A stretch of 64,000 bases of DNA, taken from contig NC_057712.1 in NCBI RefSeq assembly GCF_004010195.1, positions 93,986,256-94,050,255 of the forward strand, read 5' to 3'. Numbering within the stretch: position 1 is the stretch's first letter; every line of letters begins with the position of its first letter. The translations under genes and the position numbers were made by a program. The notes under the pieces were generated by a model. The model saw nothing but the letters and a program-made list of their open reading frames with translations. It made no database searches and was not told the DNA's origin. This document shows positions 12,096 to 64,000 of this stretch, one piece after another. This DNA is from Chiloscyllium plagiosum. Lineage: Eukaryota.

Positions 12096-12123
12096 AATTA
12101 TGCAAGGTGATAGATGCTGAAGA

Positions 12124-12209
12124 GTTTTGAGAAGATTTTTAGCTCAGGTTGAGGTTTGGGATGTAGGTTTGCTCGCTGAACTGTATGGTCAGCGAGCAAA
12201 CCTACATCC
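12124..12209. mobile_element. 86-bp fold-back insertion, probably a PLE terminus (family D)
   Basis: 12-bp TSD agatgctgaaga (12112-12123, 12210-12221); perfect 21-bp stem 12159-12179/12189-12209. Confidence 0.75.
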
Positions 12210-15200
12210 AGATGCTGAAGAACTGGGGAAACGGGAGCAGTCTTCTGAAGAGGAGGACAAGGACATTGGGCAGGAGGGAGCTGTCATTATCTATGACAGA
12301 CCCTAACGGCATTGAGTGAATCAAGCCAGACTGGACCACACTGATACCTGCTTCCAATATGGTGCAGCAGACCATCATGATGCTAGAATCTGGTTTACAG
12401 AGTGAGGGTGAACTTCAGCTTCTATTGTTTTGGATTTGTGTTTCTTTTTACTGTCTGTATATTAAAGCTCATGTTTGGAATTGTTTGACTGCCTGCCAGT
12501 AATTGATGTCCCCAACTGGGTAATGATAAGCTGCAGGTTTCCAGTGGGGATAGGGTAGTGCTGGTTTAGAGGGTGTTCACGTGGGATATACCTATGGACG
12601 GGTCAGCTGTGTGGTCTGGTGGATTCAACAGCAATGAGGGTGAGACAATGGGGTGGACTGTGTGAGGGGATGTCAGCCATGCCAGCTATGTGCGATGGGC
12701 AGTATGGATTTGTGGATGCTGTGCCACAATATTGCTGGTGAGGGGTCTATGCTAGTTTGCCAACGCTTGTCAAAGATGCCACTGGTGCAAAATTTTGAGA
12801 GTGTGATGGATTTAATTTTAAAAAATCAGGGCATCTAAAAGCAGCTTCACATTTACTATTGTTAGGAAGAAGTTACTTTAAAGAGTATTCCATCATAAAT
12901 CTTTCCAAAGAATAGAAGAAACAGACTATGGAAAGTTTGAAAGCCATGAAGGCATGCTTTTAAAACTCTAAGCAAATGTAACTTATGGATGGTATATGTT
13001 GTCAACATGTGACTTCCACACAGAATCCGGCAACACAAAGAATGATCTAATTAAAGACAGGGCTGCATCAGGCATAGGAAATCTGCAGTAAGAGAATGTC
13101 TATTGCGAGAGGAGAAACATACTCAGTGGAAAGACATCAAATTGTGCAGAAGGACTGATGTTGTAAATGATCAACTAAAACATATTCAAGAAGGGACAGA
13201 ACAGACCTATTGGTTTTACTGAGTAATTCAAGATCCAGGAGAATATGTATCAAGATGTTTGACTAGATCAACATGACTGGCAGAGTCATATGACTTTAGT
13301 TTTACCCTTAGTGAGATGCTGGGAGACCTTCTGGTATGTGGGATTGATGATGTAATCATGCAAAAGCGCCTCATGGCTGAAGGTGAACTGGACTTCAAAC
13401 AGGCACTACAACTGGCTTTATCATATGAAAATGCAGCAAGTGGAGCATATGAGTTGCAGGGTGATCCGATGGAAGTGGTGACCATCCCAAACCTGACTGA
13501 ATTTGGGAGTCTTGAGTGAAGGCAATTGCATAGCCTCACTCAGGGCATATCCTGAACAGAGAGACTCTCTAGGTCAGCCCACAGCAAAAACCCAAAACAA
13601 ATCCAAGCCTCGGCCAAGGAGTTAGAATTTTCCTCAGGATTTGGGCCAGCAAGCTAATGTAGTTGCAGCAAATGAGTCCCACCAAACCTGGATTGAGTAA
13701 GAGAACTCATAGGCTGGTATCCAAGACAGTGCCAATCCTGGAAAATACACCTACATCTGGTTTGGAACGGTTAAATTGCTTTGCACTGTCCAAATCAGAA
13801 CCAATCAAAATAAACGCCTGTTTAATAATAGTCACTTGGTTCTAATGGATGTTGATATCAGTGTAGCTGTTTCAGTGATCACTGAACCAGTCTTTGACAA
13901 AATTCATATTAGACTCCAGCTCTTCAGTTTGCTCCGCTAGACTGACAACCTATACTAGGGAACCTTTACAAATTAAGGGTAGAACTTTGGTTCCAGTCAC
14001 TTATGAGAAGCTGCTAGTTCAGTTGCCGCTGATTGTAGTAAAAGGTTCAGGCCCAAACTTGCTAGGGTGAAATTGGTTGAGAAAGATTCACCTGGATTGG
14101 CTCAACATTTTTCAATTAGAAAATGGCTGTCTGAATGAAGTCCTAATTAATTCTGGGAAGTTTTTCAGGAAGGTCTAGGGCCTATCAAAGGAGCCAAAGC
14201 CACCTTACATGTTCACCAGGAAACAATTCCACGATTCTGCAAGGCACTCCTAGTGCCTTATGGGCCAAAGTCAAACCAGTCTAGTTGTGTAATGGGCAAC
14301 ACTGGTGGAACCAATTGTGAAGCATGAAGGGTCAGTTTGCCTCTGTGGGGATTTTAAACAAATGGTAAACCACTTTTCCCAGCTGGATAAATACCCAAAT
14401 CTTTGCTTAGAGGATTCATACACAAAGCTGGCAGGGAACTGTCCTTCCCGAAGCTGGGTATGAGCCATGTGTACTTGCAATTGCAGTTAGATGAGGATTT
14501 CCAGAGGTATGCTGTAATTAATACCCATACAGGTTTGTACCAATATACAAGACTGCCATTTAGGGGTATCGTCAGCCTGTGCAATTTTTCAGCGGATGAT
14601 ATAGAAAACTTTACAAGTTTTCTACCCCAGGTCACCATTTAACTAGATGACTTGATAATAACAAGGAAGACCAAGAAAGAGCACTTAGAGAACTTGGTCA
14701 TAGTGCTTAGATGTTTCTCCCAGACAGGCGAAAGCCTTAGATGGGAAAAATGTGTGTTCCTATTTGGACTACACTATTGACAAGACTAGGTTACATCTGT
14801 TGGAAGATGATCAAAGGTGCCCTGGCTCCCACGTCTGTACTGGAGCTTAGATCTATCCTTGGGCTGGTGAATTATTATGGAAAGTTCATACATAACCTGG
14901 CCTCCATCCTGGCACCTACATGTCAACTCTTAAAAAAGGGTCAGCCTTGGAAATGGCCATGTAGCCAAGTCATAACTGTCAGGGAAGTGAAGAAACAGCT
15001 ATCATCGTCTATGGTGTTTGCACACTATGATTCCAAACAAGATCTGGTATTGATCTATGATGTCTCTCTGCATGGCAGCGGGGTAGTATTAGCTCATAAG
15101 TGGCCCAATTGAGAGGAATATCATTAGCATATGCATCCAGGACTTTGGCTAATGCAGAGTGTAAATATGCTCAGATAGCGAAGTAAGGTTTGGCTGTCAT

Positions 15201-15900: not shown

Positions 15901-16098
15901 CTAGGCCAAAATGAGGACTGCGGATGCTGGAGATAGAGTCTAGATTCGAGTGGGGCTGGAAAAGCACAGCAGGTCAGGCAGCATCCGAGGAGCAGGAAAA
16001 TCTGATTTCTGATGAAGGGCCTTTCCCCGAAACATCGATTTTCCTGCTCCTCGGAGGCTGCCTGACCTGCTGTGCTTTTCCAGCCCCACTCTAACTGC
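15901..16098. mobile_element. Fold-back PLE-terminus insertion (family B) nested in Gypsy
   Basis: Arms about 15948-16002 and 16037-16091 are reverse complements; 9-bp direct repeat gaacaaaac at 15892-15900 and 16099-16107. Confidence 0.85.
16006..16040 (+). ncRNA. Minimal hammerhead ribozyme-like motif (family B, partly decayed)
   Basis: CTGATGA (16009-16015), A, GGGC-CTTT-CCCC, GAA, ACAT, C, GA; ACAT is likely CpG-decayed ACGT. Confidence 0.6.
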
Positions 16099-19075: not shown

Positions 19076-19077
19076 GT

Positions 19078-19386: not shown

Positions 19387-20403
19387 GTGCATGTGCATGT
19401 CCAGCAGTCGCTTAAATGTCCCTAATGAGTCTGCTTCCACCTCTACTGCGAGCAACGCATTCCATGCATTCACAACTCTCTGCGTAAAGACCCTACCTCT
19501 GACGTCTCCATTATACCTTCCTCCTAATATCTTAAAACCATGACCCCTTGTGCCAGTCAATCCTGCCCTGGGGAAAAGTCTCTGGCTATTGACTCTATCC
19601 ATGCCTCTCATTACCTTGTATACCTCGATCAAGTTACCTCTTTTCCTCCTTGTCTCCAGAGAGAAAAGTCCGAGCTTATAAACCTGTCTTCATAAGACAA
19701 GCCCTCCAGTCCAGGCAGCATCCTGGTAAACCTTCTTTGCACCCTCTCCAAAGCCTCTGTATCTTTCCTCTAATAGGGCGATCAGAACTGCACACAATAT
19801 TCCAAGTGTGGTCTCACCAGGATCTTGTAGAGCTGCAGCAAGACCTTGCAGCTCTTAAACTCAATCCCACTGTTAATAAAAGCCAAAACACCATGTGCTT
19901 TCTTAACAACCCTATCCACTTGGGTGGCAACTTTGAGGGATCTATGCACTTGAACGCTAAGATCCCTCTGTTCCTCCACACTGCCAAGAATCCTGTCTTT
20001 AATCCTATATTCAGCATTCAAATTTGACGTTCCAAAATGCATCGCTTCGCATTTATCCAGGTTGAACTCCATCTGCCATTTCTCAGCCCAGTTCTGCACC
20101 CTGTCTATGTTGCGCTGCAGCCTGCAATAGCTCTCGATACTATCAATGGCACCTCCAACCTTTGTGTCATCTGCAAATTTACTAACCCACCCCTCAACCT
20201 CTTCATCCAAGTCATTTATAAAAAATACAAAGAGCAGAGGCCCAAGAACAGAGCTCTGCGGGACACCACTCACCACTGACCTCCAGGCAGAATACTTTCC
20301 ATCTATAACTACTCTCTGCCTTTCTGTCAGGCAACCACTTCTGAATCCAGACAGCTAAATCTCCCTGTGTCCCATACCTCCTGGCTTTATGAATAAGCCT
20401 ATG
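19387..20403 (-). mobile_element. CR1 RT fragment of a different subfamily
   Basis: ORF 19782-20276 has SGVPQSSVLGPLLF..FINDL..KFADDTK..VRPHLEYCVQF; ORF 19348-19632 has the C-terminal FTQRVVNAWNAL. Confidence 0.92.
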
Positions 20404-21774
20404 TCACCTCCTTGGCCTTACCGCAGCACAAGCAGTAGCCACTGCCCCAGTGTGCTGAGCTATGAGAAGGAACATCCTACAGATAGACAGAAGTCCTGTC
20501 TTGTATGAGGTAAATGGCAATTGCTTGAACAATAGCAGAGTGTGGTGACAGAGCAGAGGCAGGGTCACCCCTGAAATTTGTGCTGGCAGTGCTGTGAGCA
20601 TGATCTCAGTATAAAATCCAATCCATCATACAAAACAGCAAGTTTTTTAAAAGCTCACAGTTGTAATATGATGCATCACAAAGACATTTATGAAACATGT
20701 GGTGGGTCTATTGGGGAATAAGCTGAACCAAATACTGCTTTTTTCCCAAATCTTATTGACCCTCAATATATTACTAATGTGTGCAGACTGAACTGGCTTT
20801 TGAATGGCCACAATCCCATTTCTCAGCTTTCCAACAGCTTACTCACACTTTATTTGGATCTACTGTACACCAACCAATACTCTAATTATACTTTAATAAG
20901 TTGACCCAGGAAACCCACATGTCTCTCTCAACCACAACTGGCATCACAGCAGCAGATGTTCCAAAATAGTTAACGTAATTCCACTTGCACCTCCTCATGA
21001 CCAGTTACAATATTACATCGACCAGGAACTGGCAGCTTCTGCCTATTGGCCCTATTACAGCATTCAAAAAAAGTGTTGAGGGAAATGTAAATGCAACAGC
21101 CTAAGGTTTTACATTTTGTAATGAAAATGTTTGTATTTACAGCAAAATTGTCATCGTACAAATCGTATAATATTTTTTCCCTATTGGCACAATGACCTGC
21201 AAAATGTAAATGATCTTCAGGAGGTGCTGTAGATCTAGCACAATCCTCAGTGACAGGAGCCTTTCCAATATTCAATATCTTTAGCCTGGAGCTGTGACAA
21301 CTGCAGCTAACTGACAAATAGTGTGGTAAAAAGATTGTACCAACAGGTTTTAGACACAGTAGTTATATCTTTTCTGAGTTCATTTTATTTTCCACAGGTG
21401 ATAAGTCTGGCTATTAACATCCGGGTGGGAAGCAAATGTAAAGATTTAAGGTGATAATAAACCTTAGTGTGGTGTAAGGATGAATACAATGTTCAACCAA
21501 CATTGTTTGAGACTATTGTAAGTCAAAGAACATTGAGGTGGGTTAACATATATTTAATACATTTTAAAAATAATAATTTTTTTATTAAAAAGATACTGAT
21601 ATTTTCTGCAAACTTAATCCATCAGAATTCGACAGGAACAGAGCTGGCAATTACCATCTTGTGTAACTGCACACTGACCATACTAAAAGTTCAAAGTACC
21701 TCTTCCTCACAAATATGAATGCTAGCAGAATGTGGCTTCACATGATCATCTTAACCCCTCAGATGAATGAACTG

Positions 21775-22713
21775 GTATAGTTAGTAAGCTTGCAGATGAT
21801 ACAGAAATTGGAGGTGTAGTGGACAGCGAAGAAGGTTACCTCAGATTACACCAGGATTTAGACCAGATGGGCCAATGGGCTGAGAAGTGGCAGATGGAGT
21901 TTAATTTAGATAAATGTGAGGTGCTGCATTTTGGGAAAGCAAATCTTAGCAGGACTTATACACTTAATGGTAAGGTCCTAGGGAGTGTTGCTGAACAAAG
22001 AGACCTTGGAGTGCAGCTTCATAGTTTCTTGAAAGTGGAGTTGCAGATAGATAGGATAGTGAAGAAGGCGTTTGGTATGCTTTCCTTTATTGGTCAGAAA
22101 TGGAGTACAGGAGTTGGGAGGTCATGTTGCAGCTGTACAGGACATTGGATAGGCCACTGTTGGAATATTGGGTGCAATTCTGGTCTCCTTCCTCTGAAAG
22201 ATGTTGTGAAACTTGAAAGGGTTTAGAGGGGATTTTCAAAAATATTGCCAGGATTGGAGGATTTGAGCTATAGGGAGATGCTGAACAGGCTGGGGCTGTT
22301 TTCCCTGGAATGTTGGAGGCTGAGGGATGACCTTCTAGAGGCTTACAAAATTATGAGGGGCATGGATAGGATAAATAGGCAAAGTCTTTTCCCTGGGGTG
22401 GGGGAGTCCAGAACTAGAGGGCATAGGTTTAGGGTGAGAGGGGAAAGATATAAACGAGACCTAAGGGGCAACTTTTTCATGCAGAGGGTGGTACGTGTAT
22501 GGAATGAGCTGCCAGAGAAAGTGGTGGAGGCTGGTACAATTGCAAGATTTAAGAGGCATTTGGATGGGTATATGAATAGGAAGGGTTTGGAGGGATATGG
22601 GCCGGGTGCTGGTAGGTGGGACTAGATTGGGTTGGGATATCTGTTCAGCATGGACAGGTTGGACCAAAGGGTCTGTTTCCATGCTATACATCTATATGAC
22701 TCTATGACTCTAT
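21775..22713 (+). mobile_element. CR1 (HER1-like) LINE, 5'-truncated
   Basis: ORFs 21819-22226 and 22245-22625 (WAEKWQMEFNLDKCEVLHFG; FFMQRVVRVWNELP); tail (atgactct)n. Confidence 0.93.
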
Positions 22714-27205: not shown

Positions 27206-30103
27206 AAATTAGTTGTTTGACTGGGAGAGAGAACATAGCAGGAAAATTCTCAGTGCTACCTTGCTGGGCAAATTATTTACCTTAGATGGGCAGATTACAT
27301 TTTCTTTCCTGTTGTATTTATTCTTTGATTGAGATTAGAGTCATTACACACAGCCTCAGAGATTGTGAATGCACTCGGCCGTAGACATTGTAACTTTCCA
27401 CTGCTTAGTGGCTCACTTCTATCAATGAACTTTTCAGTGGCCCTGTAATTGGAGAAGAGTCAGTTAGTTGCAGGACATTGAAGTAGTTAATAAAGATCTT
27501 CATTCAGAAATAAACCCTATATTCCACTGTTCCCTTGTCAGTTTCCACATAAATTAATTCTGTAACTGAGCAAGTAGTTTGGACACCTATCTTCTCCCTA
27601 GCTAAACAAAGAAAGTAAGACTCCATGGTAGCGATTAAACTATTACTTATTAACAACTATTTGTTTCAGTTATTTTAAAGAATGAAAATTGCTGACAATG
27701 GGAAAGAGAGAGATACACATCTTGCTTAGAAAAATTATCTGCTCCCAAATCCCATCTCTTTGAGCTTTTCTGAGGAAACATTGGTACATAACATGCCTGC
27801 AGTAAATTCTGCAGACCTGCAATATTCAAACAGGGCGACTGGGATTGTGTTGATTGAAGGGAAGAAGGAGCTTATAATTATATAATCACCTTCGTCACCT
27901 CAGGATGTCCCACTTTATATCCAATAAAATGTTTAGTACAAAATACATAATACCATGGATGCTGGAAGTCGGAAATGCAAGAACAAAATGCTGGAAAATA
28001 CACAGCAGGTCCATGAAGTGAGAAGCAAAAGCTGATGTCTCAACAGAAATATTGTTGAAGTCCAATCACGATTTAGTAGAGGGATAAATAGAAAGCAGGA
28101 TTCACATTTTCATTTCTTCAAAACAGTGCCATCTACAAGGTTCACTGAAGAAACAGATAGTATCATGGTTTAACAATTCCTCCAAAAGACCTCCAAGAGT
28201 GTCAAACACCCTCAGGAAAGCACTCTATAAACCTAAGATTATGTATTAGGTTGGAGTGGAACTTGAATTCATAAACTTCTGAATCAGACAATAATTTTGA
28301 CCACCAAACCACTTTGAGGCCCATTTTTGTCAAGCCAGCCTGGGTACTCAGAAAATCTTTCTAAGCTTTTAAAATCTTTTATATATTTCATAATTGTTAA
28401 AATAAAGAACTAATACGCCATTCTGCTGTTCTAAACCAATCACCTTATCCATCCTCACAGATAGTGACCCATTATTTTGAGTATGTTTTCTAAAAGCAAA
28501 ATGGTTTCCCTGGCATCAGGAAATAAGCATGTATTGTTTTCCATATACAATGATGGCTCTAAAATTGGATCATGGGATACTAATGGACATTACACACATA
28601 AACTCTTCTGAATCTTCTCTCTGTGCTATTTTAATGATGACCTGTTTCTTTCCAGTGAGTTCATGCCTCAACCACAATAATGAGAATTTTCGGTTGCTAA
28701 GGTCAAACATTAGTATCCCACGATATAATTTTAGGCTTCTTTCTAGTCATTAGTTTAATGCGGGTTTTGCATCATTACAACGTTCTACATTATGCATCAT
28801 TTCCTTCCTTCCCTTGTCTCCGCCCTTCAGCTTTAAGAGTCAAGTTAGCAATTGAACAGCAGAACCGCAAGCAAGTGAAGTGATTAAAGAGAGAGTGCAC
28901 TTTCTGGAAGTTGTACTTCTGTTAAATGATACATAATCCAATGGTTAAGAATCACTGGTGTTCATTTGTTCAGACCACATTATGCTTCGTTATGCACCAT
29001 ACAGGATATCTGAATCATGTGACTATAACATGATTTGATTTACGTCACAAGACATTAACAAACTCAATAAACCTGAGCAATTTATGGAGAAAAGGTCGAT
29101 GGAAACTGGTTAACAATCAATGAACTGAGGAAGGCTTGATACAAATATTAGCCACTAACACACTACATTAATTCTTTGAGTTAGCATGTGATGATTGAAA
29201 AGTAGTGGCAGCAGCTTTTTGATTGAAAGAAAAGTTGCAAAGTGGTAGGATTAGAAGCTCATGTTTATTGTAATATAATTTGAATTTAATTTATTGCGTT
29301 AACAAAATTTTAAATCATAAAAAGATTCATCCAAAGCAGGGCTTTTTTAGTCAGGGAAATGGCAAAAGTTAATTATTGCAAAACAAAAGTTTCTATTGAT
29401 CTATATAGATAGGGGTGCTTGCTGCCGTTTAAGAATAGGTCTCCTGACTCGCCACTGGAACTTTGGGTCAATTTAGGACTAGCTGTGTAACAGTGTAGTT
29501 GTGTAATCAAGTGTTCCCTGGTTTAAGTACGACCAGGCTTACCTTGTGGTCTATTTATAATTTATAAATTGACCATAAACTTAACGCCAGTGTTTCAATC
29601 CTGCAAGGTGAAAAGCTTTCAGCTGTTTGTTTTTTATTTAATGTTTAAGTTCTGTACTACCAAGCAATTAAAAGTTTAATCATTTGCGTCATTGACCTGT
29701 TAGGATAACTGTAAGCAAACATGTTCTAACCAGCAGTGCAAACCCAGGGTGAACGGTTAGCAATCATCTCTCACAACATCACTTCGCTTGAATGAAAGAG
29801 CCACTTTTGATTTGAAGTTTTCAGAATGACACCCTTATCTTCCCAACATAGTCCAGCAGTTTCTTAAGTGAATCCAGGCTTCATCCATTCTTCCTGGTGA
29901 CCCATTCCAATATCTGACCACCCTCTGTGCAAAGAAGTATTTCTGAGTGTCGTTTCTAATATTGCAAACCTGCATCTGTATCATCTTATCCTGCTGATTT
30001 TGTAATCCGTAAGAAATTTTTCAGGACTTACTTTCTGACTCCCATTTCTCTTTGGCATCCTTCTACCTTGTCCCTTGATGGACAATGTTTTATTTTGATA
30101 CAT

Positions 30104-30325
30104 AGCAAAGCAAAGTACTGCAGGTGATGGAAAACTGGAAGTGCTTAGGAAACTCAACAGGTCTGGCAACAACTATAGACAGAAAGACAGATAGTGTTTC
30201 GAGTCCAGTGACCTTTCACCAGAGGGGTCAAATGTAATGAAGAGTCACAGGATTCGAAACGTTAGTGCTGTTTTTCTCTCTACAGATGCTGCCAAATCTG
30301 GTGGTTTTCTCCATTGCTTTCTATC
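30104..30325. mobile_element. Fold-back PLE terminus (family C) with two decayed hammerhead-like cores
   Basis: gtttcgagtccagtgacctttca is inverted relative to tgaagagtcacaggattcgaaac; the plus arm retains GAA-ACGT. Confidence 0.65.
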
Positions 30326-44460: not shown

Positions 44461-44547
44461 TGCCTGAAAATGGAATTTTGGAGTTAGATTGAGATCCAGA
44501 TCCAAAAATGTCCATTTTCATTACTAACCAGGCTCCATTCTAGGGAG

Positions 44548-44608: not shown

Positions 44609-44696
44609 TCCATTCTAGGGAGTTCAACTGTCCCTCTGTCCTCAGTCCATCCAATGTTTCTATCCTTATTAAGGAAAGTCATTTAACAAATAAGTC

Positions 44697-45025: not shown

Positions 45026-45465
45026 TAAGCTAAATCAATCTTAGATATTTCATCAGTTTGTGCTGTATGATATTCTGAAAGACACTTCATGTCCTTTAAA
45101 TTCATTTATTGCATGTAACTATAATAATGATTGCAATATTCTGTCATCTTCAGAGGTTTGATGAATAACAATAAAAATATTTCAGTCTGTTGCATTGTGC
45201 TACAGTACCCTCAACTCTTGTTCTAGCTTGCACAATGAATACCTTATCATGCTAACACATAGCTCTACTGAGTTAGTGCAATTTTGCTTATTCACTCATG
45301 TTGATCAATATCTATTCTACAATTCTATTTGTCAGGCTGAACTACACCACCTCACACCCACTAACAGGTAGCAAATCATTTGTGTAAAAATCAATCTTAC
45401 TTGGCACAGAACATTATATGTCCAAAATGTGCATTCTAATGGCCATGACCTATTTTAGCCAACCT

Positions 45466-46075
45466 TTTTATTCATTCATGGGATGTGGTTGTCACTGGCA
45501 TTTGTTGACAATCCTTTATTGCCCTTGAAAAGATCAGTCACTTTCTTGAATGCAATTGAATGAGTTGCTATGTCTTTTCAAAGGGTTTGTTGTTTGTAAG
45601 TTATGATGTGGAGGAGCCAGTGTTGGACTGGAATGAACAAAGTTAAAAATCACACAACACCACGTTATAGTCCAACAGGTTTATTTGGAAGTACTAGCTT
45701 TCGGAGTACTGCTCCTTCAACAGGTAGCTGTGGGACAGGATCATAAGACACAGAATTTATAGTAAAAGATTTTGCTGTAAATTTTGTGTCTTATGATCCT
45801 TCTCACAGCTACCTGATAACGGAGCAGCGGTCCGAAAGCTAGTACTTCCAAATAAACTTGTTGGACTATAACCTGGTGTTGTGTGATTTCAACTTTGTAA
45901 GCTACACAGGGTAAGGATGCAGGTTTCCTTCTCTGGAGATACCAGTGAACCAGATGGAGTTCTATAATACTTTGACTGCCTTTACTGACACTAGCTTTGC
46001 ATTCTGTTTGATTGAATTTAAATTCCCCAGTTGCTTCGTGGAGTTGTTGCCACATCATTAGTCCAGACTTCTGCA
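45466..46075 (-). mobile_element. MetaSINE-like element split by a PLE palindrome
   Basis: Tail ttattcattcatgggatgtgg at 45468; reverse Meta-like core gggtaaggatgcaggtttccttctctggagataccagtgaaccagatgg from 45910. Confidence 0.6.
45601..45893. mobile_element. Fold-back PLE-terminus palindrome (family A)
   Basis: Arms of about 125 bp (about 45637-45765 and 45771-45898); 8-bp TSD tttgtaag (45593-45600, 45894-45901); decayed hammerhead cores on both arms. Confidence 0.88.
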
Positions 46076-46345
46076 AGTGCAAGTTTGCATGCTCTGATAC
46101 ATTAGAGTGAGATAACAACAGGGCACACAGTCTTATTTTAGCACTCGGTTTTCAAAACACTGTTGTTGCACACCTCTGACCCAATTGGATAATCTCTATT
46201 TGACCACACAAAGCAAGTTTCGAGACAGTTAGCAATGCACCTGGATGAATTGAGCAGGAACTAATTCAATTTGCATAAGGACAAAAGCAATGTTGAGTGT
46301 GACTCAGTCTGACACCTCTCAGCAATGAAATACATAATAGCACTG

Positions 46346-46546
46346 ATGATTTGGAGATGCCGGTGTTGGACTGGGGTGTACAAAGTTAAAAATCACGCAA
46401 CACCAGGTTATAGTCCAACAGGTTTAATTGGAAGCACACTAGCTTTCGGAGCGACACTCCTTCATCACAAGGAGCGTCGCTCCGAAAGCTAGTGTGTATC
46501 CAATTAAACCTGTTGGACTATAACCTGGTGTTGTGTGATTTTTAAC
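46346..46546. mobile_element. Fold-back PLE-terminus palindrome (family A)
   Basis: 10-bp TSD aatagcactg (46336-46345, 46547-46556); arms about 46385-46462 and 46469-46546. Confidence 0.92.
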
Positions 46547-47339
46547 AATAGCACTGGTAATCAATATCCCAATTTATATTGGTGCTACTGCTGATGAGAA
46601 TGTAACAGACTTGAGTGCGCAAAACCATCAAAACGGAACACCATGTTTCACGATTCCCACATAATCAAAATTCCAACAACAGTGTCTCCAGCTAATATAG
46701 TTAAAGGTTAGCTGCAGCCAATAGTGGCATTAGGTTATATCCAGCCTTTCCAAGCGGCCTGTAGGTGGACTAATGCTTCAGTCCACTTGTACAGATCAAC
46801 AATGCACTTTTGACCAGCATGATTCTGCTGACCTCTCTGTCATCAGAACAATTGTTGGCCAAACTGGCAAAGCTGTTAAAATAATTTTGCAATAAATCTC
46901 TACGACTCTATAACTCTAAATGTACATGTAGAAATTTTGGACGTACAAAGTTGGTTCAGTGTTATACTTGAAAAATGATCTATTACTATTAGATCCATTC
47001 CACAGTACAGGGCAGACGGAGTTCTCCAGCAAGGAGTTTGGTTTATATTTCAGAAACAATTCATGGTCAAGCCAGAGCCTTCCTTTTTTTAATTGCAGAA
47101 AATATCTTCAACCTGCTGATAATACACTGGTCCACCCTAAGTTTATAGTGCAAATACATTTTTAAAAATTGCCATCAACCTTTCATTTGTGTACTTATCA
47201 ATTTACTGTGCTCTTTGCAAATCAGATTAGATAAAGGTCACTGATAAATTTCATAGATATTATAAAGGTCACAGGGGTAGAAACATTTCAGAATGGATTT
47301 ACATAGAAGTCATACTTGATAAAATACACCGGAATTCTT

Positions 47340-48421
47340 CAAGGCTGCCATTTGGATACAGAACTGGCTCAAAGGTAGAAGACAGAGGGTGGTGGTGGAG
47401 GGTTGCTTTTCAGACTAGAGGCCTATGACCAGTGGTATGCCCTAAGGATTGGTGCTGGGTCCACTACTTTTCATCATTTATATAAATGATTTGGATGTGA
47501 ACATAGGAAGTATAGTTAATAAGTTTGCAGATGACAGCAAAATTGGAGGTGTGGCAGACAAGGAATAAGAGTACAATGGGATCTTGAACAGATGGGCTAA
47601 TGGGCCAAGGAGTGTCAGATGGAGTTTAATTTGATAAATGTGAGGTGCTACATTTTGGAAAGGCAAATCAGGGCAGGACTTATACACTTAATGGGAAGAT
47701 CCTGGGGAGTGTTGCTGAACAAAGAGACCTTGGAGTGCAAGTTCATAGTTCCTTGAAAGTGGAATCGCAGGGAGATAGGATAGGCATTTGGTATGCTTGC
47801 CTTCATTGATCAGTACATTGTGTATAGGAGTTGGGAGATCACGTTCCAGCTGTACAGGACATTGGTTACACCACTTTTGGAATATTGCATGCAATTCTGG
47901 TCTCCCTGCTCTAGGAAGGATGTTGTGAAACTTGAAAGGTTCAGAAAAGATTTACAAGTATGTTGCCAGGATTGGAGGATTTGAGCTATAGGGAGAGGCT
48001 GAACAGGCTGGGGCTATTTTCCCTCAAGTGTCGGTGGCTGAGGGGTGACCTTATAGAGGTTTATAAAATCATGAGGGGCATGGTTAGGATAAATAGACAA
48101 GGTCTTTTCCCTGGAGTGGGGAGTGCAGAACTAGAGGACATAGGTTTAGGGTGAGAGGGAAAAAATTAAAAGGGAACCTAATGGGCAACATTTTCACGCA
48201 GAGGGTGGTGTGTGTATGGAATGAGTTGCCTAAGGAAGTGGTAAAGGCTAATACAATAACAATGTTGAAAAAGGCATCTGGATGGGTTTTTGAATAGGAA
48301 TGGTTTAGAGGGAAATGGGCCAAATGCTGGCAAATGGGACTAGATTAATTTAAGATATCTAGTCAACATGGATGAGTTGGACTGAAGGATCTGTTTCCAT
48401 GCTGTACAACTCTATGACTCA
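47340..48421 (+). mobile_element. CR1 (HER1-like) LINE, 5'-truncated
   Basis: aagtttgcagatgac (KFADD), LEYCMQFWSP, YRERLNRLGLFSL, tail ctatgactc. Confidence 0.92.
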
Positions 48422-48440
48422 ATGAAAGTCAAGTTAGAAC

Positions 48441-49121
48441 TGAAGTGGGAGATGACACAGGGCAGGGTGATACTAGGCACACAAGATGGCCGCCGAGCCA
48501 TCAGTTGGCCAACTTGACACATAAGATGGCCGCTGGATCACAACATGGAGAGAAACAGCAGAGCAGATGCAGACACTGCCTGAGGCCACCAAAATGCCAG
48601 TACAATGCACTTGATTATTTTAAGGCGGGTGGGGGAGAGAATACACTTGAGTAATGAACACTGCCCGCTGAAGTGTGTGGGTACAGCCGGCGCCTCTCAT
48701 AGAAATGCTAACAACGTGGTACAGACTCAATACGAAGTGCTAATAGCTAGGACGGGAGTAATCATCCTTTTCAGGAAGAGTAATTAGCACCCATTACTAC
48801 AGCAATGGTATTCCATGCAGGCATTGAAACTGACATTTGTCTACCCTGAAACTGACAATGACTGTATCGAAACTATCAATGATTCTGTAATGATTACTAT
48901 AAACAAACCATGTACAAAGACAATAATCTCATCACTGACCTATTGTATCGCAAGATATATAAAAATTTCTCGACATGTGCTCCGGGTCGAGAGAAGACTC
49001 GCAGCTGACCACTGTGCTGTTGTTGTCTTTCGCTCCCTGGGGCTCCAGTATTTCCTTGTACAATAAACTCTGTCATTGAACCCTGACTCTGACTCCGAGA
49101 CTGGTGACTTTCCCCATAATA
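48441..49121 (+). mobile_element. Probable ERV-type solo LTR
   Basis: About 680 bp starting tgaagtgggaga and ending tttccccataata; near-TSD gaac/gaat; two aagatggccgc motifs; TATA gatatataaaaa about 48953; AATAAA about 49062. Confidence 0.6.
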
Positions 49122-49124
49122 GAA

Positions 49125-50295
49125 TTAATAGCGATGATTGGGAGAGCTAGTGGTTGTGGTTTATTTGGACTTTAAAAAGGCTTTCGATGAAGTGCCACAT
49201 GAGAGATTAATGTAACATTTGGGGTTAGTGTATTGAAACAGATAGAAAATTGGTTAACAGACAGGAAACAAAGGGTAATAAACAATAAATAATAAGGGGT
49301 CTTTTTCTGAATGGCAGGCAGTGACTGCAGGGATTGGCAAGAGGACGGCAGCTATTCACAACATATGTTAATGACTTAGATGAGGGAAATAAATGTAATA
49401 CCTCAAAATTTGGAGATGGCACAAAGCTGGGTGGAACGGTGAGCTGTGAGGAGGATGCAGAGATGTCGCAGTGTGATTTGGACAAGCTGAGTGAGTAGAC
49501 ATGGCAGGTACAGTATAGTGTGGATAAACATGAGACAATCCAAAAATACGAAGGCAGGTTATTATTTGAATGGCTGTAAATTGAGAGACGGTTATGTTCA
49601 ATGAGAATGGGGTGTTCTCATGCACGAGTCAGTGAAAGTAAGCAACAGGCAGTAAGCTGACAGCAAGAGAGTGAGAGTATAGGAACAAAGAAGTCTTGCT
49701 GCAATAATACAGGGCATTGATGAGGCTACACCTGAAATATTGTGTGCAGTTTTGGTCTCCTAATCAGAGGGAGGATGTTCTTGATATAGAGGGAGTGCAG
49801 TGAAGGTTTATCACATTGATTCCTGGGATGACAGGACAGATATACGAGGAGAGATTGAGTTGGTTAGGATTGTATTCCCTGAAGTTTAAAAAAATTGAGG
49901 GAGGATCTCATAGAAACCTAAAAATACCAACAAGACTGGACAGGTCCGATGCTGGAAGGATGTTCTGATGGTCGGGGTGTCTATAACCAGAGCTTATCAT
50001 TTAAGGATATAGAATAAACCTTTTAGAACTGAGATGAAGAGAAATTTTATCATCCAGAGAGTGATGAGCCTGTGAAATTCATTACTATAGAAAGTAGTTG
50101 AGGCCAGAACATTGTGTTTTTGAGAAGGAGGTAGATATAGTGTTTGTGGCTAAAGGGATCAAGGGATATGGGGGAGAGCAGGATTAGGATATTGAACTTG
50201 ATGATCAGCCATGATCATAATGAAAGGCTAGAGGGATTGAAAGGCCTACTCCTGCTCCTACCTTCTATATCTGTACCTACGATCTCTGTGTCTAT
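49125..50295 (+). mobile_element. Decayed CR1 LINE
   Basis: ttggactttaaaaaggctttcgatgaagtgccacat (LDFKKAFDEVPH), KFGDGTK, tattgtgtgcagttttggtctcct, and 3' UTR gatcagccatgatc. Confidence 0.88.
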
Positions 50296-52345
50296 GTGTT
50301 GTTTCTGTTTATGGCGCAAAAATGTGGGTGAAAATGAAATGTAAATAAACAGTTATTAAAACATTAAATAATTAAGAATAACTGTCAAAGTGTGTTGGTC
50401 CCTAATGAAGGTGAAATGTTTTTATCCTGCCTCTTAGTCAGAATGCTTTAAGTATAAGCTTCATTCTAGGAGTTGAGCTTCTATCCTTGCCTCAACAGTC
50501 TATGCAGTACTGAGGGAATGCAGAGGCAGAGTGTGGCCCTTACTCTGGGGGAATGGAGAAGGTCATTGACCTTGATTTTGGATTGCTGGCCATTTTGCTG
50601 CACTCTGGCTGTGGCATTGACCTGGGTAGAAACCTCAGATGAGGCTGGCAGGGATTGGCATGGTTGTATTCTTGGTCAGTGCCCTGGGAAGATCTCTGGA
50701 CTACCATGTCCACCTGGATCTCCAGGTGCTTGGCAGAGTCATCAGTGCCATCTTTTCCTTCTCTGGCATGTTCAGATTCTGTCAAGCAACAGACAGGACA
50801 GCTTCAGGATGCTAGTACAGCTGCACAACAGGGTCTTAAAGATGGCATGAACACGAGGGATTTCAGTGGATATCCACTGAGTGGCAAGTTATTATCAAAT
50901 GGCACATGGTAAGATGGTGCTGAAATCAAATGTTAGTGATGACATAGGGGTGGGGTTAAGTTTTTAATACAACGTGTTTGGCCAGATAGGCTGAGAAATC
51001 TCATTCGTCCTTGCAATGGGAAACCTTTCAACAAACCAAAGGTAGATTGGAGCCTAAAGAATGTAAGATTCATCGCATTGAAACAGTCATTTCTACCCAA
51101 AAGAGTGAATAAGATTGTTTTGAACAAAGGGACTTGGATCAAAATGTTTGACATGTGCCTGATGAACGGAAATTAGGCCTTAATGAGATTGATAGATCTT
51201 TCTGTAATACCTGGTTTTATAATAAATAACAAAAAGAATAAATATTTACAAAATTTTTATTCAAATTAAGAATGCAGATTTTCTGTTGTACCCATAACTG
51301 AGGCAAAACCGAAAGTGTAGGTTGGGTAGAATGAATTTCATTGAGGCCACAGCTGAGCAAAGAAATGTCATGTTGATTAACACTTAGTGGGACCTCGGGA
51401 CTTTAGCCTTCTTTGCACCTCAATCAGCAACTGGCAAGCTGACTTCAGATTTGTCATTATCCTGATCATTCAGTCTTACAAATGTGTTTGTTTCAATGAA
51501 CACAATATAATTACACCCAGAATCCATAAACTCTATAAGTTTAATAAACCAGAGTCAGCAGATTGTGATTTCCATAGTGCCTGTAAGTCATGGGTCAAAA
51601 TCTGGAAGCTCAGCTGGACTGCAAGCTGCTTTAGTGCAGTTATGTCCCACACATTTTGGAAGTTACCTCATGTCTGGTATGATTACTAAGGTCAGGTACA
51701 AACTGAAATACTAACGTGGCTGAATTAATAACAGGTGAAGTTAATACCATGAAAACAGTTTAAAGACTTTATAGGTAACAGGTTAATGAAAACATTATAA
51801 TTTCAGTTGTAATTTAAAAGATTAATTCCACTTCCAGATGAAAGTGGCTCTCACAAGAACAGAATTGCACACAGATTTTGTTTGTTCATTTTAATGCTTT
51901 TCTGAGATTTAACTCCTGTGATCACTGCTCCTGACTTGAGATTGCGGAATCACCTCTATTTTATTGCTGTGTACATCATATGTTTATAAGTTCATTCAGG
52001 ACAATGTAACCCAAACTCGCCTGTCTCAGGAGAGGGTGATACAATGTCCATGAAATGGGAAAGGTGGAAAGCCCTGAGCATTTACAAAGTGCCTTTCATT
52101 TCCCCTTGATATTCCAAAGAGCTTCACAGCAAGTGATCAGCTTATGAAGCACAATCATTATTGTTCTGTACCAAACCGATCAGAAGACTGATTGTCTATT
52201 TTTTTCCTCAACAAAAGAACAAATCTTCGGATTGATTGCAAGTAACAGAAAAGTCACTATCCAAGATTGTCTTGTCTTCCTCGTTGTAAATGGATGTGGA
52301 ATAGAGGCAAGGCACACACTTTGACAGTCACAAATCAACTTAACC

Positions 52346-52548
52346 TCGATTCGGAGATGCCGGTGTTGGACTGGGGTGTACAAAGTTGAAAATCACACAA
52401 CACCAGGTTATAGTCCAACAGGTTTATTTGGAAGCACACTAGCTTTCGGAGCGACGCTCCTACAATCACCTGATGAAGGAGCGTCGCTCCGAAAGCTAGT
52501 GTGCTTCCAATTAAACCTGTTGGACTATAACCTGGTGTTGTGTGATTT
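52346..52548. mobile_element. Fold-back PLE-terminus palindrome (family A), well preserved
   Basis: 11-bp direct repeat tcaacttaacc (52335-52345, 52549-52559); near-perfect arms about 52383-52461 and 52477-52555. Confidence 0.92.
52467..52501 (+). ncRNA. Minimal type I hammerhead ribozyme motif with apparently intact core
   Basis: CAC-CUGAUGA-A-GGAGC-GUC-GCUCC-GAA-AGCU-A-GUG: stem I CAC/GUG, 5-bp stem II, palindromic AGCU in place of stem III, CUA cleavage triplet. Confidence 0.75.
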
Positions 52549-53149
52549 TCAACTTAACCATTTTTTGATGCCAAGGTTAACGCATTTGAATTTAGCCATA
52601 GCTGAGAATCAAGCGTGTGACTGCAGCTAAGCAAACATTAGAACAATGAATGTCCTACAGAGCAAGTGCTTAACGGTCCTTTTCTCTGTTTGTCAAACAC
52701 TGCAAGCTGCAGTCACAGTTTGCATCAAAACATTTCACTACATCATTAAAACATCTTTACATAATATTATCACTCACAACAAAAAGAAAGAACGAGCATT
52801 TATAAAACATTTCATCACATGCTTAGACCTTCCCAAAATTATCCAGTCAATTCATTTTGAAGAAGTGTTAATATTGTTTGTAAGCAAACAAGGCAACTAA
52901 TCTGCAGTCCAGCAGGCTGGCCAATTCATCCTGTAGTTCTGCTGGTTCAATGGAATCTCCAACGTCAGCAAATGGTACTCCCAGTAGGACAGGTGCAGTG
53001 CTGGGCAAGATGCCCGCGCAGAGGTGCTGGAAACACTACTAGTCACAATGTTCTTCTGCTGTCCACATGTTTTGATGCATGGTTTTGAAGCTTGGACTGT
53101 GTGGGTCTACTGAACAATGACTGCTGGAAGCATTGTGGGTTGTATGGGA

Positions 53150-58855: not shown

Positions 58856-58930
58856 GTCCAGGTCTGGCAGCATCTATGGAGAGAAAACAGAGTTAAAGTT
58901 TCAGGTGCAGTGACTCTTCCTCAGAACTCA
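58856..58930 (-). mobile_element. PLE-terminus remnant (family C) with decayed hammerhead-like core
   Basis: Minus strand gttCTGAGGA-agagtcactgcacct-GAAActt; flank matches 30155-30220. Confidence 0.55.
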
Positions 58931-58989: not shown

Positions 58990-59600
58990 CCAGATTACTT
59001 AATACATGACATCCAGACTCACATCTAATGGTGGGTATGCTGTTTCAAAAGTTGCAAGCACAGGCTGGCACAGCATGATGAGCTTAATGCCCACACTGAA
59101 TGGTGAACAGGGCATGTTGTTTGTTAAGGTCTGCCAGTCATTTGGATGCTCAGCCTGCATAGCTGGCATCACACTGACACTGAATCTCAAATAGCACATG
59201 CATGACTTGAGCAGTAGTCAAAATGTCTTTTTGGTTTTCTTCCACCATCCTGATAGTAGAGAAAAAGACTCATATGTTTTCTGCAAAGTAGCAGCATAAG
59301 ACAGCTAGCTTCACTAAATGCTCAAAGTTTAGAGATAAATTCCAGGATAAACTCAGATAAGACTGGATTCTATTCAGAGTTAAATCTGGTGGCCGTAGAC
59401 CTTTTCATGAATTTGCATGATATATGCTGAGTGATGACTTGATCAGGGTAGCAATTATCATGCAAAATAATTTTGATATTCCCTGTCTCAGTATCAAGCT
59501 TACACAGTGACGAGATGGCTGGCAGCCTATTCAAAAATTGCCAATAAAATTGATCCTGTAACACTTAGATCTATAGAAATCCCAATGTATATATTGACTA
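58990..59600 (-). mobile_element. Old Penelope-like element (RT thumb and GIY-YIG remnants)
   Basis: KLDTETGNIKIILHDNCYPDQVI resembles the NGYP thumb motif; a frameshifted QCQCDASYAG-type GIY-YIG lies at about 59130-59195. Confidence 0.7.
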
Positions 59601-60900: not shown

Positions 60901-61177
60901 GGGCGGCATGATGGCACAGTGGATAGCATCAGGGCTGCCTCACAATGCCAGAGACCTGGGTTTAATTCCTGCCTGGGTTTCCTCCGGGTGATCCGGTTGC
61001 CTCCCACAGTCCAAAAATGTGCAGGTTAGGTGAATTGGCCATGCTAAATTGCCCATAGTGTTAGGTGAAGGGTAAATGTAGGGGAATGGGTCTGGGTGGG
61101 TTGCTCTTCAGAGGGTCGGTGTGGACTTGTTGGGCAGAAAGGCCTGTTTCCACACTGTAAGTAATCTAATCTAATCT
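60901..61177 (+). mobile_element. HE1-type V-SINE nested in CR1
   Basis: gggcggcatgatggcacagtgg...ggcctgtttccacactgtaag(taatc)n; host CR1 is continuous across it (tctctataa|gatcacccctc). Confidence 0.92.
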
Positions 61178-63737
61178 AAGATCACCCCTCATCCTCCGAC
61201 ACTCCAGGGAAAACAGCCCCAGCCTATACAACCTCTCGCTATAGCTCAAATCCTCCAACCTTGGCAACATGCTTGTAAATTTTTTCTGAACCCTTTCAAG
61301 TTTCACAACATCATTCTTGGAGGAGGGAGACCAGAATTGCACACAATATTCCAAAAGTGGCCTAACCAATGTCCTGTACATGATGACCTCCCAACTCCTA
61401 TATTCAATATTCTGACCAAGAAAAGAAAGCATACCACACGCTTTCTTCACTATCCTATCTTCCTGCGACTCTACTTTCAAGGAGCTATGAACCTGTATGC
61501 CAAGGTCTCTTTGTTCCATCCCTAGGACCTTACCATCAAGTGTATAAGTCCTGCTAAGATTTGCTTTCCCACAATGCAACACTTCGCATTTATCTGAATT
61601 AAACTCCATCTGCCACTTCTCAGCCCATTGACCCATCTGGTCCAAATCCTGTTGTAATCTGAGGTAACCCTCTTCTTTGTCCACTACACCTCCATCTTTG
61701 GTGTAATCTGCAAACTTATTAACTATACCACCTATGTTCACATCCAGATCATTTATATAAATGATGAAAAGTCGTGGACCCAGCACTGATCCTTGTGGCA
61801 CTCTACTGGTCACAGGCTTCCAGTCTGAAAAACAACCCTCCAGTACCACTCTATGCTTTCTATCTTTGAGCCAATTCTGTACCCAAATGGCTAGTTCTCC
61901 CTGTATTCCATGAGATCTAACCTTGCTAACCAGTCTGCCATGGGGAACCTTGTTGATTGCCTTACTGAAGTCCATACAAATCATGTTCACTGCTCTGCCC
62001 TCATCAATCCTCTTTGTTACTTCTTCCAAAAACTCAATCAAGTTTGTGAGACATGATTTCCCACGCACAAAGCCATGTTGACTATCCCTAATCAGGCCTT
62101 GCCTTTCCAAATACATGTGAATCCTGTCCTCAGGATTTCCTCCAACAACTTGCCCACCACCAGTCTATAGTTCCCTGGCTTTTCCTTACTGCCTTTCTGT
62201 AATAGTGGCACCATTTTAGCCAACCTCCAGTCTGATGGCACCTCACCTGTGACTATTCATGATACAAATATCTCAACAAGGAGCCCAGCAATCACTTCCC
62301 TAGCTTGCCACAGAGTTGTAGGGTACACCTGATCAGGTCCTGGGGATTTTTCCACCTTTATGTGCCCCTTAATGATGTCCTGTTTCTTTCTTCGCCTTAA
62401 TATTAATTTGTTGTTTGTTTTACTGTTTTCTTTTGTCACTTCTTCCTTTTTTATGAATAAACTATTGCTTTAGAATTGATGTGATTGTTGGTGTCACCAT
62501 GTTATTTGGTAACTTTGGCCTCATCAATTATATCATTAATGGCATTAATAGCATCACAGTTAAACGCTTGTACAGGAATTGAAATGTAACACAAAAGGTA
62601 TTAGAGCAGTCTGACTCATGTTGCAACAGATAGTGCAGAAGACTTTCAACTTGAGAACTATTCAGTGACAATGTCCTCTTTTAAAAATAAAAGTATGTCA
62701 CATTGAGTTACAAGAGCTCAGCAGAATTCAACAAAGCTGCTATTAAAATGACAATTCCAATAACTGAACCTCTAATTGCTTGGTGGAACAGGACGTAAAC
62801 ATTGCCAAAGACATTTTGCATTCAATAGGAAACGACAAGGCTTGAGAAAAAGTACACCAATTTATACATCATGCTAAATTAAAAGAAAGAACTGCAGATG
62901 CTGGAAATCTGAAATAAAAACATATATTGTTTTTCTTGGTGGCAGAAAATTTCACAGGCTCACCACCCTCTGGCTGAAGAAATTCTCCTTATCTCAGTCA
63001 TAAGTAACCTGTCCTGAATCCTTATATTGTGTCCCCTAGTTCTGGAATGAATGAACAAAGGGAATAGGCAATAAATGAAGTAATGTAAACCTACTTCCAT
63101 TTCAAAATTCCTGTAATACATTCTTGCCAGAAGTAGTAAAATAGTTGCTAGGGATCAATTTCCCCCAGGCTTTGGTATGCTGAAGTACATACCTGGAACC
63201 TGCACTTGCCAGTGGCAAGATGAGCTGAGCAGGAATGACTCAAATGTAGGCCCATCATGTTCATCATCCTTGAAGATGCCTCTCCAACCAGAAGTCAAAA
63301 ACTCTGGAGCCTCATTAGCCTACCAGGACAGGTTAGCACTGCTTAGTGTCCATGAGTCTACCTCAGCATGGAGGCAGATTTGCTGGCCTGCACAACTGTG
63401 AAGAGATACATAAAATCTAAGTCAACAAGTCCATGGGGATGGAAGGCGTAACCTGCCCATTGGATTGGACTCATCCAAGGTTGCAGTCCTTCATACTGGC
63501 TCCTTTGTCAATGACACGTGATGACTTCCCCTCCAGCCTGCCACAGGTAGACAGTTTCTCTAATGGCAGCCCACTTGTGCCAAAATACCAACAAGGATGT
63601 GCAATAGGGTGATCGCCTCCATGGAATAAGAATCTGATCTAATTCCCAGCCCATCTCTACAAAAGTTCAGTCATGAAGCGTTAATCATCTGAGAGAAGGA
63701 ATCGTTCTCAGAGCACTTTACAGACGCTTCAATAGCT

Positions 63738-63821
63738 GCTCCTTGGATGCTGCCTGAACTGCTGTGCTCTCCCAGCACCACTAATCCTGGTTTCCAGCAT
63801 CTGCAGTCATTGTTTTTACCT
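63738..63821 (+). mobile_element. 84-bp PLE 3' terminus insertion (family B)
   Basis: 13-bp TSD cgcttcaatagct (63725-63737, 63822-63834); matches the reverse complement of 38183-38232. Confidence 0.88.
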
Positions 63822-64000
63822 CGCTTCAATAGCTACCAGTAATGAGGGCACATCAGCTGAATAGGCCAGTGGGCCCACTACGGGACTCAGACTTTTCAGA
63901 ACAATAGAGCATCACAAAGAGCCTCAATCCTACATGAAAGTTGCAATGTGTAAACACTTTCAACACAAGGCAGTGGGATAAAGATTGGAAGACAAAATTT

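Follow-up and report, generated by a model that had tools for sequence, protein, structure and literature searches.

Penelope-like elements (PLEs) are known to integrate in a characteristic layout. In their accounts of insertion structure, Arkhipova et al. 2013 (PMC3846280) describe an inverted pLTR, an optional 31-bp tail and a target-site duplication (TSD) of 8-10 bp, and Craig et al. 2021 (PMC8557442) describe a 5'-truncated copy in inverted orientation, with one end carrying a tail of 30-40 bp. For PAc (Poseidon of Anolis), the in vitro experiments of Frangieh et al. 2024 (PMC11167929) report that both target strands are cut and extended and that two reverse transcription start sites bracket the tail; completion of PLE integration is called unresolved in PMC8557442 and PMC11167929. 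Cervera and De la Pena (2014; PMC4209133) ascribe pairs of minimal hammerheads in Schistosoma, which lie 100-700 bp from each other on opposite strands, to truncated PLEs. According to Li et al. 2026 (10.64898/2026.07.22.740005), a non-LTR retrozyme repeats its unit head to tail at least twice, and every unit includes a complete type I hammerhead. L1 twin priming is mentioned in 10.1101/2024.12.14.628481. Our search of published papers returned nothing specific on palindromic PLE mini-elements or on shark PLE hammerheads.

The window, by which we mean the whole 64,000-nucleotide stretch of the Chiloscyllium plagiosum genome that was analysed, carries a series of short hairpin stubs that are real, very abundant in this shark genome and ordinary in kind. 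They are most likely ordinary truncated PLE insertion footprints whose layout has already been published, and not a new self-copying element. All ten loci listed in an earlier note on this DNA were confirmed at their coordinates, and two family C fragments were added (58858 and 62880). The features, assigned to families A to D, are as follows.

7570 to 7755: old family C fold-back with a weak arm match (22/26), without TSD
11533 to 12096, minus strand: broken coding PLE remnant, comprising the C-terminal part of the endonuclease region, the 3' UTR and a tail-less family B end
12124 to 12209, no single strand: family D stub with a 12-bp TSD at 12112/12210; the tailed arm, on the minus strand, consists of a 35-bp tail, 21 paired bp and 9 unpaired bp, and the tail-less arm occupies 12189 to 12209 on the plus strand
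15901 to 16098, no single strand: family B hairpin with a 9-bp TSD at 15892/16099; tailed arm at 15901 to 16002 on the minus strand, tail-less arm on the plus strand reaching about 34 bp further upstream, with a hammerhead-like core at 16009
30104 to 30330: old family C fold-back (arms 53/70) with decayed hammerhead-like sequence at its centre, without significant TSD
33659 to 34387, no single strand: older family A hairpin with a decayed 13-bp TSD; tail-less arm at 33659 to 33821 on the minus strand, tailed arm at 33822 to 34387 on the plus strand and 333 bp longer at the centre
38181 to 39085, minus strand: broken coding PLE remnant, comprising the region C-terminal of the RT core, the start of the endonuclease region, an assembly gap, the 3' UTR, a hammerhead-like core at 38269 and a tail-less family B end
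44548 to 44608, no single strand: family B inversion without paired arms, with a 14-bp TSD at 44534/44609; the reversed tail (about 34 bp) is followed by the direct 27 bp that precede the tail in the element
45601 to 45893: family A hairpin, near-symmetric with its centre at about 45768, with an 8-bp TSD at 45593/45894
46346 to 46546: family A hairpin with its centre at about 46468 and the tailed arm about 5 bp longer, with a 10-bp TSD at 46336/46547
52346 to 52548, no single strand: family A hairpin with the closest arms of all and an 11-bp TSD at 52335/52549; the tail-less arm exceeds the tailed one by about 15 bp and holds a hammerhead-like core at 52470, and the junction shows 5 bp of microhomology
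58858 to 58925, minus strand: family C fragment with a hammerhead-like core at 58924
62880 to 62921, minus strand: family C tail fragment
63738 to 63821, plus strand: family B simple 5'-truncated end with tail and without inverted arm, with a 13-bp TSD at 63725/63822

The ends of these insertions appear to correspond to the pLTR-plus-tail ends of PLEs. The earlier note had identified family B with the end of coding PLEs in the window, and this was borne out at 11533-12100 and 38181-39085, two coding remnants that terminate in family B sequence and match proteins with hits to reverse transcriptase (RT; PF00078, RVT_1) and GIY-YIG (PF01541) domains. Judging by sequence, the family B stubs are the ends of EN+ Penelope-like elements. 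The window itself holds no RT core, and a Pfam search with three of its own broken PLE frames gave nothing significant. Of the roughly four families previously distinguished, A and D score low against the other groups (10-19), whereas C proved to be a distant relative of B, with cross-scores of 30-42 through the 62880 fragment. Family A combines a PLE-like layout with a hammerhead-like motif, family D has the layout only, and family C resembles B. A 22-base pattern of family A had no match in either viral or metagenome contigs, and the only 63-codon open frame of the longest family A copy retrieved no protein among 5 candidates, which is weak evidence. Within these searches, no coding PLE ending in family A, C or D sequence turned up, the condition that the earlier note had set for its reading.

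Direct comparison of the flanks revealed exact TSDs of 8-14 bp at seven of the eight young insertions. The TSDs reported previously for all eight therefore stand with the exception of 33659-34387, which has only a decayed duplication (11/13 bases at 33646/34388, equalled by 3.4% of 2951 random boundary pairs). The two old copies at 7570 and 30104 had been described as lacking clear TSDs, in agreement with our control, in which 31% and 5.6% of random pairs, respectively, score as well, and a TSD was looked for but not found at the two coding remnants. Duplication length is variable, with seven different lengths among eight TSDs, and not the fixed length with a DNA transposase that had been named as evidence against a PLE origin; at 60% A+T against 58% in the window, the TSDs show no clear compositional bias. 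Being short, palindromic, numerous and TSD-bounded, the stubs look like MITEs moved by a DNA transposase, but this origin is extremely improbable given that the TSDs span 8-14 bp instead of one length, that the termini are unmatched (0-5 of 15 terminal bases agree, and no copy has matching termini) and that family B forms the terminus of an RT/GIY-YIG element. The tail is present at one end only, in line with the MITE-like yet asymmetric appearance described earlier.

Six of the eight young insertions are lopsided hairpins, with arm identities of 21/21, 56/58, 140/162, 108/120, 74/78 (46346) and 71/72 (52346). The earlier fold-back interpretation holds for these six, as does the uninverted state of 63738, but 44548 is inverted without pairing, its parts mapping to adjacent sense stretches of the 63738 copy (63787-63819 reversed, 63765-63787 direct). 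Fold-back structure exceeds chance: exact 14-bp inverted pairs within 600 bp occur at 8 loci, while of 30 block shuffles 26 contained no such locus and 4 contained one. For the old arms at 30104 (53/70) and 7570 (22/26), 5 of 984 and 10 of 983 randomly placed pairs of adjacent segments, respectively, did as well, in a control that may contain the real hairpins themselves. Another inverted pair, at 43940-44792, was considered as a PLE hairpin and set aside, since it reads as a pair of SINE-like copies. The one-sided extension, or tail, measures 34-44 bp in six of the seven young two-armed copies, close to the 35-45 bases first described, and about 70 bp in 33659-34387, which departs from that range.

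Base-level reading of the junctions in the seven young two-armed copies revealed that the centres differ in all four family A copies of the window, with tailed/tail-less reaches from the tail end of 566/233, 166/162, 118/113 and ~115/128 (the last read by eye, where local alignment gave 132). Four of the seven copies have their longer arm on the tailed side, and in the other three (15901, 44548 and 52346) the tail-less arm carries element sequence that the tailed arm lacks. Simple self-copying of a tailed cDNA cannot give this extra sequence, nor can self-copying of a tail-less cDNA give a tail on one arm, and the three copies therefore appear to favour two separately primed cDNAs. An alternative with the same PLE origin, in which one cDNA folds back to serve as its own template and the junction is varied afterwards by deletions at the unstable centre, seems unlikely to us. 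The near-perfect centre of 45601, with its 2-nt loop, suits it, as does the look of a 20-bp fold-back (18/20) within a coding remnant at its 5'-truncated end (12049-12096); it explains the four longer tailed arms equally well, and a relatively longer tail-less arm could likewise result from a later asymmetric deletion at the centre of the palindrome. However, it needs an extra deletion step in 3/7 copies, provides no reason for the second arm to stop at the inner site, where the two coding remnants also end, and leaves the adjacent unpaired parts of 44548 unexplained. Variants shared by both arms offer no test, because both arms derive from the same subfamily under every model.

Hammerhead-like sequence recurs among the features. 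The core pattern has five matches in the window, four of them at 16009, 38269, 52470 and 58924; a predicted stem II folds in 4/6 pieces, the whole fold is non-significant except at 38232-38280, and Rfam gave no match to a hammerhead family. Seven of the eight Rfam matches are to sub-threshold miRNA families, on three stubs. The junction of 52346 falls on a 5-bp sequence common to antisense stem II and to the sense-strand bases upstream of the core. Termination of the arms at the hammerhead cleavage site was considered and dropped, as it fits 1/7 copies (the tailed arm of 15901) and no family A arm.

In sequencing reads, family A tail ends were found in 6489 reads with varied flanks, which at 0.46-fold single-copy depth corresponds to about 14,000, and a second estimate gave about 30,000-42,000 stub equivalents. 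The flanks of the tails look A+T-rich in these reads. Elsewhere in the genome, the two parts of 44548 form one continuous sense stretch (2507 and 3468 opposite-strand joints in reads). As far as the joints listed go (15 out of 7599), the fold-back junction that connects 46396 with 52462 is a recurrent one: it appears in 20 reads with 12 starts, corresponding to about 40 copies, and contigs from each of the three contig runs contain it too. Copies whose centre coincides with that of a copy in the window yield no joint in this count.

Such abundance bears on the possibility of a self-propagating palindromic PLE derivative, in which a hairpin master would give rise to RNA that PLE protein inserts intact in trans, and which corresponds to the non-autonomous retrozyme-like class that the earlier note had put forward. 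Tens of thousands of family A ends, the shared junction in about 40 copies and the centres of 15901, 46346 and 52346 within about 20 bp of a hammerhead-like core are in its favour, and pLTRs can mobilise sequence in trans according to PMC3846280. Against these points, the centres differ in 4/4 family A copies, even between 46346 and 52346, which are 92% identical; the core pattern occurs once in 2/8 young copies and twice in none; and no tandem units exist at these loci, the four tandem arrays of the window lying elsewhere. The recurrent junction itself amounts to 0.3% of reads (20/6489) and lies where the arms share a short similar sequence, as judged by eye. We consider this reading quite improbable, and the proposal of a retrozyme-like class found no support, the layout being that of the published PLE unit. 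An equally slim chance attaches to a narrower version, in which a palindromic subset with a hammerhead centre, such as the copies sharing this junction, would yield a hairpin RNA that PLE protein puts back into the genome intact; if true, it would constitute a head-to-head counterpart of retrozymes and an RNA-mobilised MITE look-alike. Taken together, different centres, unmatched termini and the lack of tandems mean that neither a MITE nor a retrozyme fits.

Several of the insertions were compared with related organisms. The 52346 stub is present in organism B and has an empty site in organism C, a related species, where 17 letters stand against 230 in the window; the difference of 213 is within 1 bp of the 214 expected for a site with a single target copy. 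The 45601 insertion is present in organism B and 46346 in both B and C, while 44548 appears to be absent from both. For 52346 (71/72, absent in C) and 46346 (74/78, present in C), the relative ages deduced from arm identity agree with those deduced from the distribution among relatives, an agreement expected if the arms were identical at insertion.

We therefore favour, as very probable, the reading of the stubs as TSD-bounded pairs of oppositely oriented 5'-truncated PLE ends, each likely a fresh product of its own insertion event and likely immobile afterwards, which supports the earlier suggestion of systematic inversion products of PLE integration, the layout being that of the published insertion unit. 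Under this scheme, the PLE protein would nick both target strands 8-14 bp apart, and each 3' end at a nick would prime reverse transcription of PLE RNA, one cDNA starting from an outer site and including the tail and the other from an inner site 35-45 nt upstream and lacking it. Both cDNAs would stop early and independently. A head-to-head joint would then form between their 3' ends at 0-5 bp of microhomology, and the TSD would arise as the gaps are filled. Overlapping cDNAs would give a lopsided hairpin, a tailed cDNA that stops where the other began would give 44548, and a single cDNA would give 63738 or the two coding remnants.

Considered as a type of element, the stubs add little; their value lies in a natural library of PLE integration junctions, the Chiloscyllium plagiosum genome holding tens of thousands of them, short and datable. 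If the tail-less arm is often longer and junctions fall on microhomologies, this library would provide in vivo evidence that two cDNAs are primed separately at each insertion. The stubs are also an annotation hazard, being easily mistaken for MITEs or miRNA hairpins.

Among known systems, the EN+ PLE insertion units described in PMC3846280 and PMC8557442 resemble the shark stubs in their inverted arms of end sequence, one-sided tail, variable TSD of about 8-14 bp, strong 5' truncation and, for family B, a protein with RT and GIY-YIG domains. Whereas the units drawn in those papers enclose a long copy, the shark arms are truncated with no ORF left, and the stubs number tens of thousands. The PAc work, in its treatment of start sites and targets, predicts one tailed and one tail-less arm and A+T-rich targets, and the tail asymmetry is found in the shark stubs; the step proposed here, in which two cDNAs become linked as an inverted pair, goes beyond what PMC11167929 shows of the reaction. 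With the Schistosoma dual hammerheads, as presented in PMC4209133, the stubs share dispersed short opposite-strand pLTR pairs, and their motifs resemble the minimal hammerheads in having a long stem II and a helix III that is a 4-nt palindrome, but most shark copies have one intact core or none, and the main text of that paper appears to be without the junction and TSD analysis given here. Metazoan non-LTR retrozymes, as characterised in Li et al. 2026 (10.64898/2026.07.22.740005; see also Cervera and De la Pena 2020), are likewise non-coding and derived from PLE pLTRs, and their type I hammerheads recall the hammerhead-like cores of the stubs. The shark stubs differ from retrozymes in being head-to-head pairs, mostly without a complete ribozyme. 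In L1 twin priming, a second target nick primes a second cDNA. The shark stubs are comparable in the proposed priming at a second nick and, at 44548, in inverted adjacent parts that do not overlap; they differ in that the arms overlap in 6/7 two-armed copies, the same stretch of RNA having apparently been copied twice, and in that the second start is fixed.

The stubs, short insertions built of the terminal sequence of Penelope-like elements (PLEs), are real and abundant, and they represent a by-product of a known kind in new families (A at 33659, 45601, 46346 and 52346; B at 15901, 44548 and 63738; C at 7570 and 30104; D at 12124). All ten loci listed in the earlier note were found in place, and exact target-site duplications (TSDs) flank seven of the eight young insertions (12124, 12 bp; 15901, 9; 44548, 14; 45601, 8; 46346, 10; 52346, 11; 63738, 13). 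Among 2951 random boundary pairs, none equalled five of these seven, and 0.4% and 1.0% equalled 15901 and 45601, respectively. The eighth, at 33659-34387, retains a decayed 13-bp TSD (11/13 bases; 3.4% of the random pairs were as good), consistent with the 14% divergence between its arms, and the old copies at 7570 and 30104 lacked a TSD in this test, as previously described. An exact 14-bp inverted pair no more than 600 bp apart was present at eight loci, compared with zero to one in 30 shuffles that permuted base pairs inside 1-kb blocks. The proposed fold-back structure stood for six young copies, which form a lopsided hairpin, but 44548 is inverted without paired arms; 63738 is indeed a plain end without inversion. 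When mapped on the 63738 copy, the left part of 44548 aligns in reverse orientation with 63787-63819, and the right part aligns directly with 63765-63787. Other repeats observed in the window were short inverted repeats at 28559-28734 (27 bp at 89%; no similarity to families A-D found) and 59407-59471 (22 bp at 82%), high-copy LINE remnants with RT-like frames, presumably of CR1 type (19782-20354, 21771-22625, 47210-48664 and 61166-62164), and copies resembling SINEs (about 43870-44070 and about 44700-44900).

The suggestion that family B matches the end of coding PLEs here was borne out, as both broken coding remnants (11533-12096 and 38181-39085) continue via a 3' region into the B end. The closest protein matches of the frame at 38654-39085 (91-94% identity) bear the name of Chiloscyllium punctatum, followed by Rhincodon and Stegostoma, which assigns the window to a carpet shark; Pfam analysis of four of these proteins gave GIY-YIG only in one (just under the cut-off), RVT_1 only in one and both in two, and tblastn of all 42 proteins against the window matched 11747-12094 and 38620-39085 only. 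Over the last 60 bases, A, B/C and D are mutually unlike. Family C is a distant relative of family B and includes two fragments beyond those first listed:

58858-58925, additional family C fragment
62880-62921, additional family C fragment

By pattern match, families A, B and C contain a minimal-hammerhead-like core, for which there was no Rfam detection; folding of the putative hammerhead pieces supported mainly stem II, and the family D stub is too short to contain the core. No coding partner of A, C or D emerged from searches with a 22-base A pattern in viral and metagenome contigs, the longest A copy and its 63-codon frame; the PLE identity of these families rests on the layout in common, together with the motif for A and C. 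The family A tail (46346-46385, minus strand) resembles a splice acceptor, after which an ATG stands exactly at the outer terminus, and reads of other family A copies show four consistent bases past that terminus; by analogy with Drosophila Penelope, this tail may represent an ORF start behind a 5' intron. The family D arm at 12124-12188 (minus strand) has one frame open over 21 codons, possibly the N-terminus of an ORF.

Two-armed copies follow the order TSD, element end, junction, reversed element end and TSD, with the 5'-truncated sides meeting at the middle. The one-sided extra 35-45 bases reported earlier correspond to an inner end 34-44 bp inside the outer terminus, but this distance is about 70 bp in 33659; both coding remnants terminate at or near the inner site. 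The first and last 15 bases of copies are identical at 0-5 positions, and terminal inverted repeats are thus absent. For family A, the reach of the arm with the outer terminus (tailed) and of the arm stopping at the inner site (tail-less) was counted from the tail end, using the 33822-34387 copy as reference and reading the 52346 value by eye.

Reach of the tailed and tail-less arms in family A copies
33659: tailed 566 bases, tail-less 233 bases
45601: tailed 166 bases, tail-less 162 bases
46346: tailed 118 bases, tail-less 113 bases
52346: tailed about 115 bases, tail-less 128 bases

Centres, where the arms join, therefore differ in all four copies, including two that are 92% identical. In 12124, 33659, 45601 and 46346 it is the tailed arm that extends further, and extra element sequence lies in the tail-less arm in 15901, 44548 and 52346. 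The 52346 junction coincides with a stretch of five bases that occurs both in stem II in reversed orientation and, in sense orientation, upstream of the core; junction microhomology is one base in 44548, with none visible in 46346. At 44576-44610, the tail/pre-tail border of a short family B variant lies in a small stem-loop of 5 bp, which is reminiscent of the stem-loop at which synthesis reportedly starts in PAc, an Anolis PLE. In a single case, 15901, the tailed arm ends roughly where hammerhead cleavage is predicted (16002-16040).

Overall, it is very probable that the stubs arose during PLE integration; as their source, two cDNAs that were primed separately are somewhat favored. It is established that the Anolis PLE protein cleaves and extends each of the two target strands, starting at two RNA sites that flank the tail (PMC11167929). 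One nick would prime at the outer site and the other at the inner site, both cDNAs would halt early, and their ends would then be joined. Such a model accounts for a tail on one side only and for centres that vary, for the longer arm being sometimes the tailed and sometimes the tail-less one, and for 44548 with its unpaired parts and 63738 as a plain end; counted against it are the small number of junctions read and the later deletion at centres that may have shaped them. Synthesis of the second arm by snap-back, which we consider rather unlikely, is also compatible with four of the seven two-armed copies, and a snap-back-like 20-bp fold-back (18/20, 8-nt loop) occurs at 12049-12096, the 5'-truncated end of a coding remnant. 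This fold-back derives from the ORF instead of the element end, with the family D insertion following 15 bp beyond.

Four of 24 listed runs were compared over 44300-53000, comprising raw reads of organism A and contigs of A and of the related organisms B and C. The 52346 site is empty in organism C, where one contig links 52346 to 52577 with 17 letters between versus 230 in the window, i.e., 213 fewer against the 214 predicted for the insertion and one TSD; in organisms A and B, contigs enter both insertion ends. For 44548, the joint itself is absent among the 15 joints listed of 7599, and we infer an empty site in organisms B and C from contigs of the same depth on both sides (15.4 and 37.9, respectively); contig end distances indicate 44534 and 44608 in B, and a contig piece in C stops at 44533 with 170 letters left over. 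In B, contigs enter 46346 on both sides and 45601 on the right; in C, 46346 is entered on the right. Among the raw reads, 6489 stop at the family A tail with unlike flanks (agreement 0.36), which corresponds to about 14,000 ends if single-copy depth is taken as 0.46-fold, the mean over nine unique bins; from the total family A depth, an amount of 6.6-9.2 Mb is obtained, equal to about 30,000-42,000 stub equivalents, these copy numbers being lower bounds at 87% likeness; single-copy depth gives a genome of about 4.2 Gb. A recurrent family A fold-back junction, 46396 to 52462, supported by 20 reads with 12 starts and estimated at about 40 copies, was found in all four runs, with a short similar sequence common to both sides; such counts miss copies whose centre equals that of a window copy and which leave no joint. 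A self-propagating palindromic subset among the stubs has a low probability.

Non-LTR retrozymes, as outlined in part of 10.64898/2026.07.22.740005, are tandems with a complete ribozyme in every unit; the window contains no tandem of this type, and the retrozyme-like class proposed earlier was not upheld. Literature searches, with Repbase and Dfam outside their scope, returned no paper on PLE hairpin stubs in sharks, and such stubs may already be present in the supplementary alignments of PMC11167929 and PMC4209133. Passages of PMC4209133 describe minimal hammerheads paired on opposite strands 100-700 bp apart and attribute dispersed hammerhead motifs to truncated PLEs. PMC3846280 in part reports inversion of the pLTR, with a 31-bp tail optionally attached to one of the inverted pLTRs, and 8-10 bp TSDs, and an inverted 5'-truncated copy with a one-sided 30-40 bp tail is presented as typical of PLEs in a section of PMC8557442.
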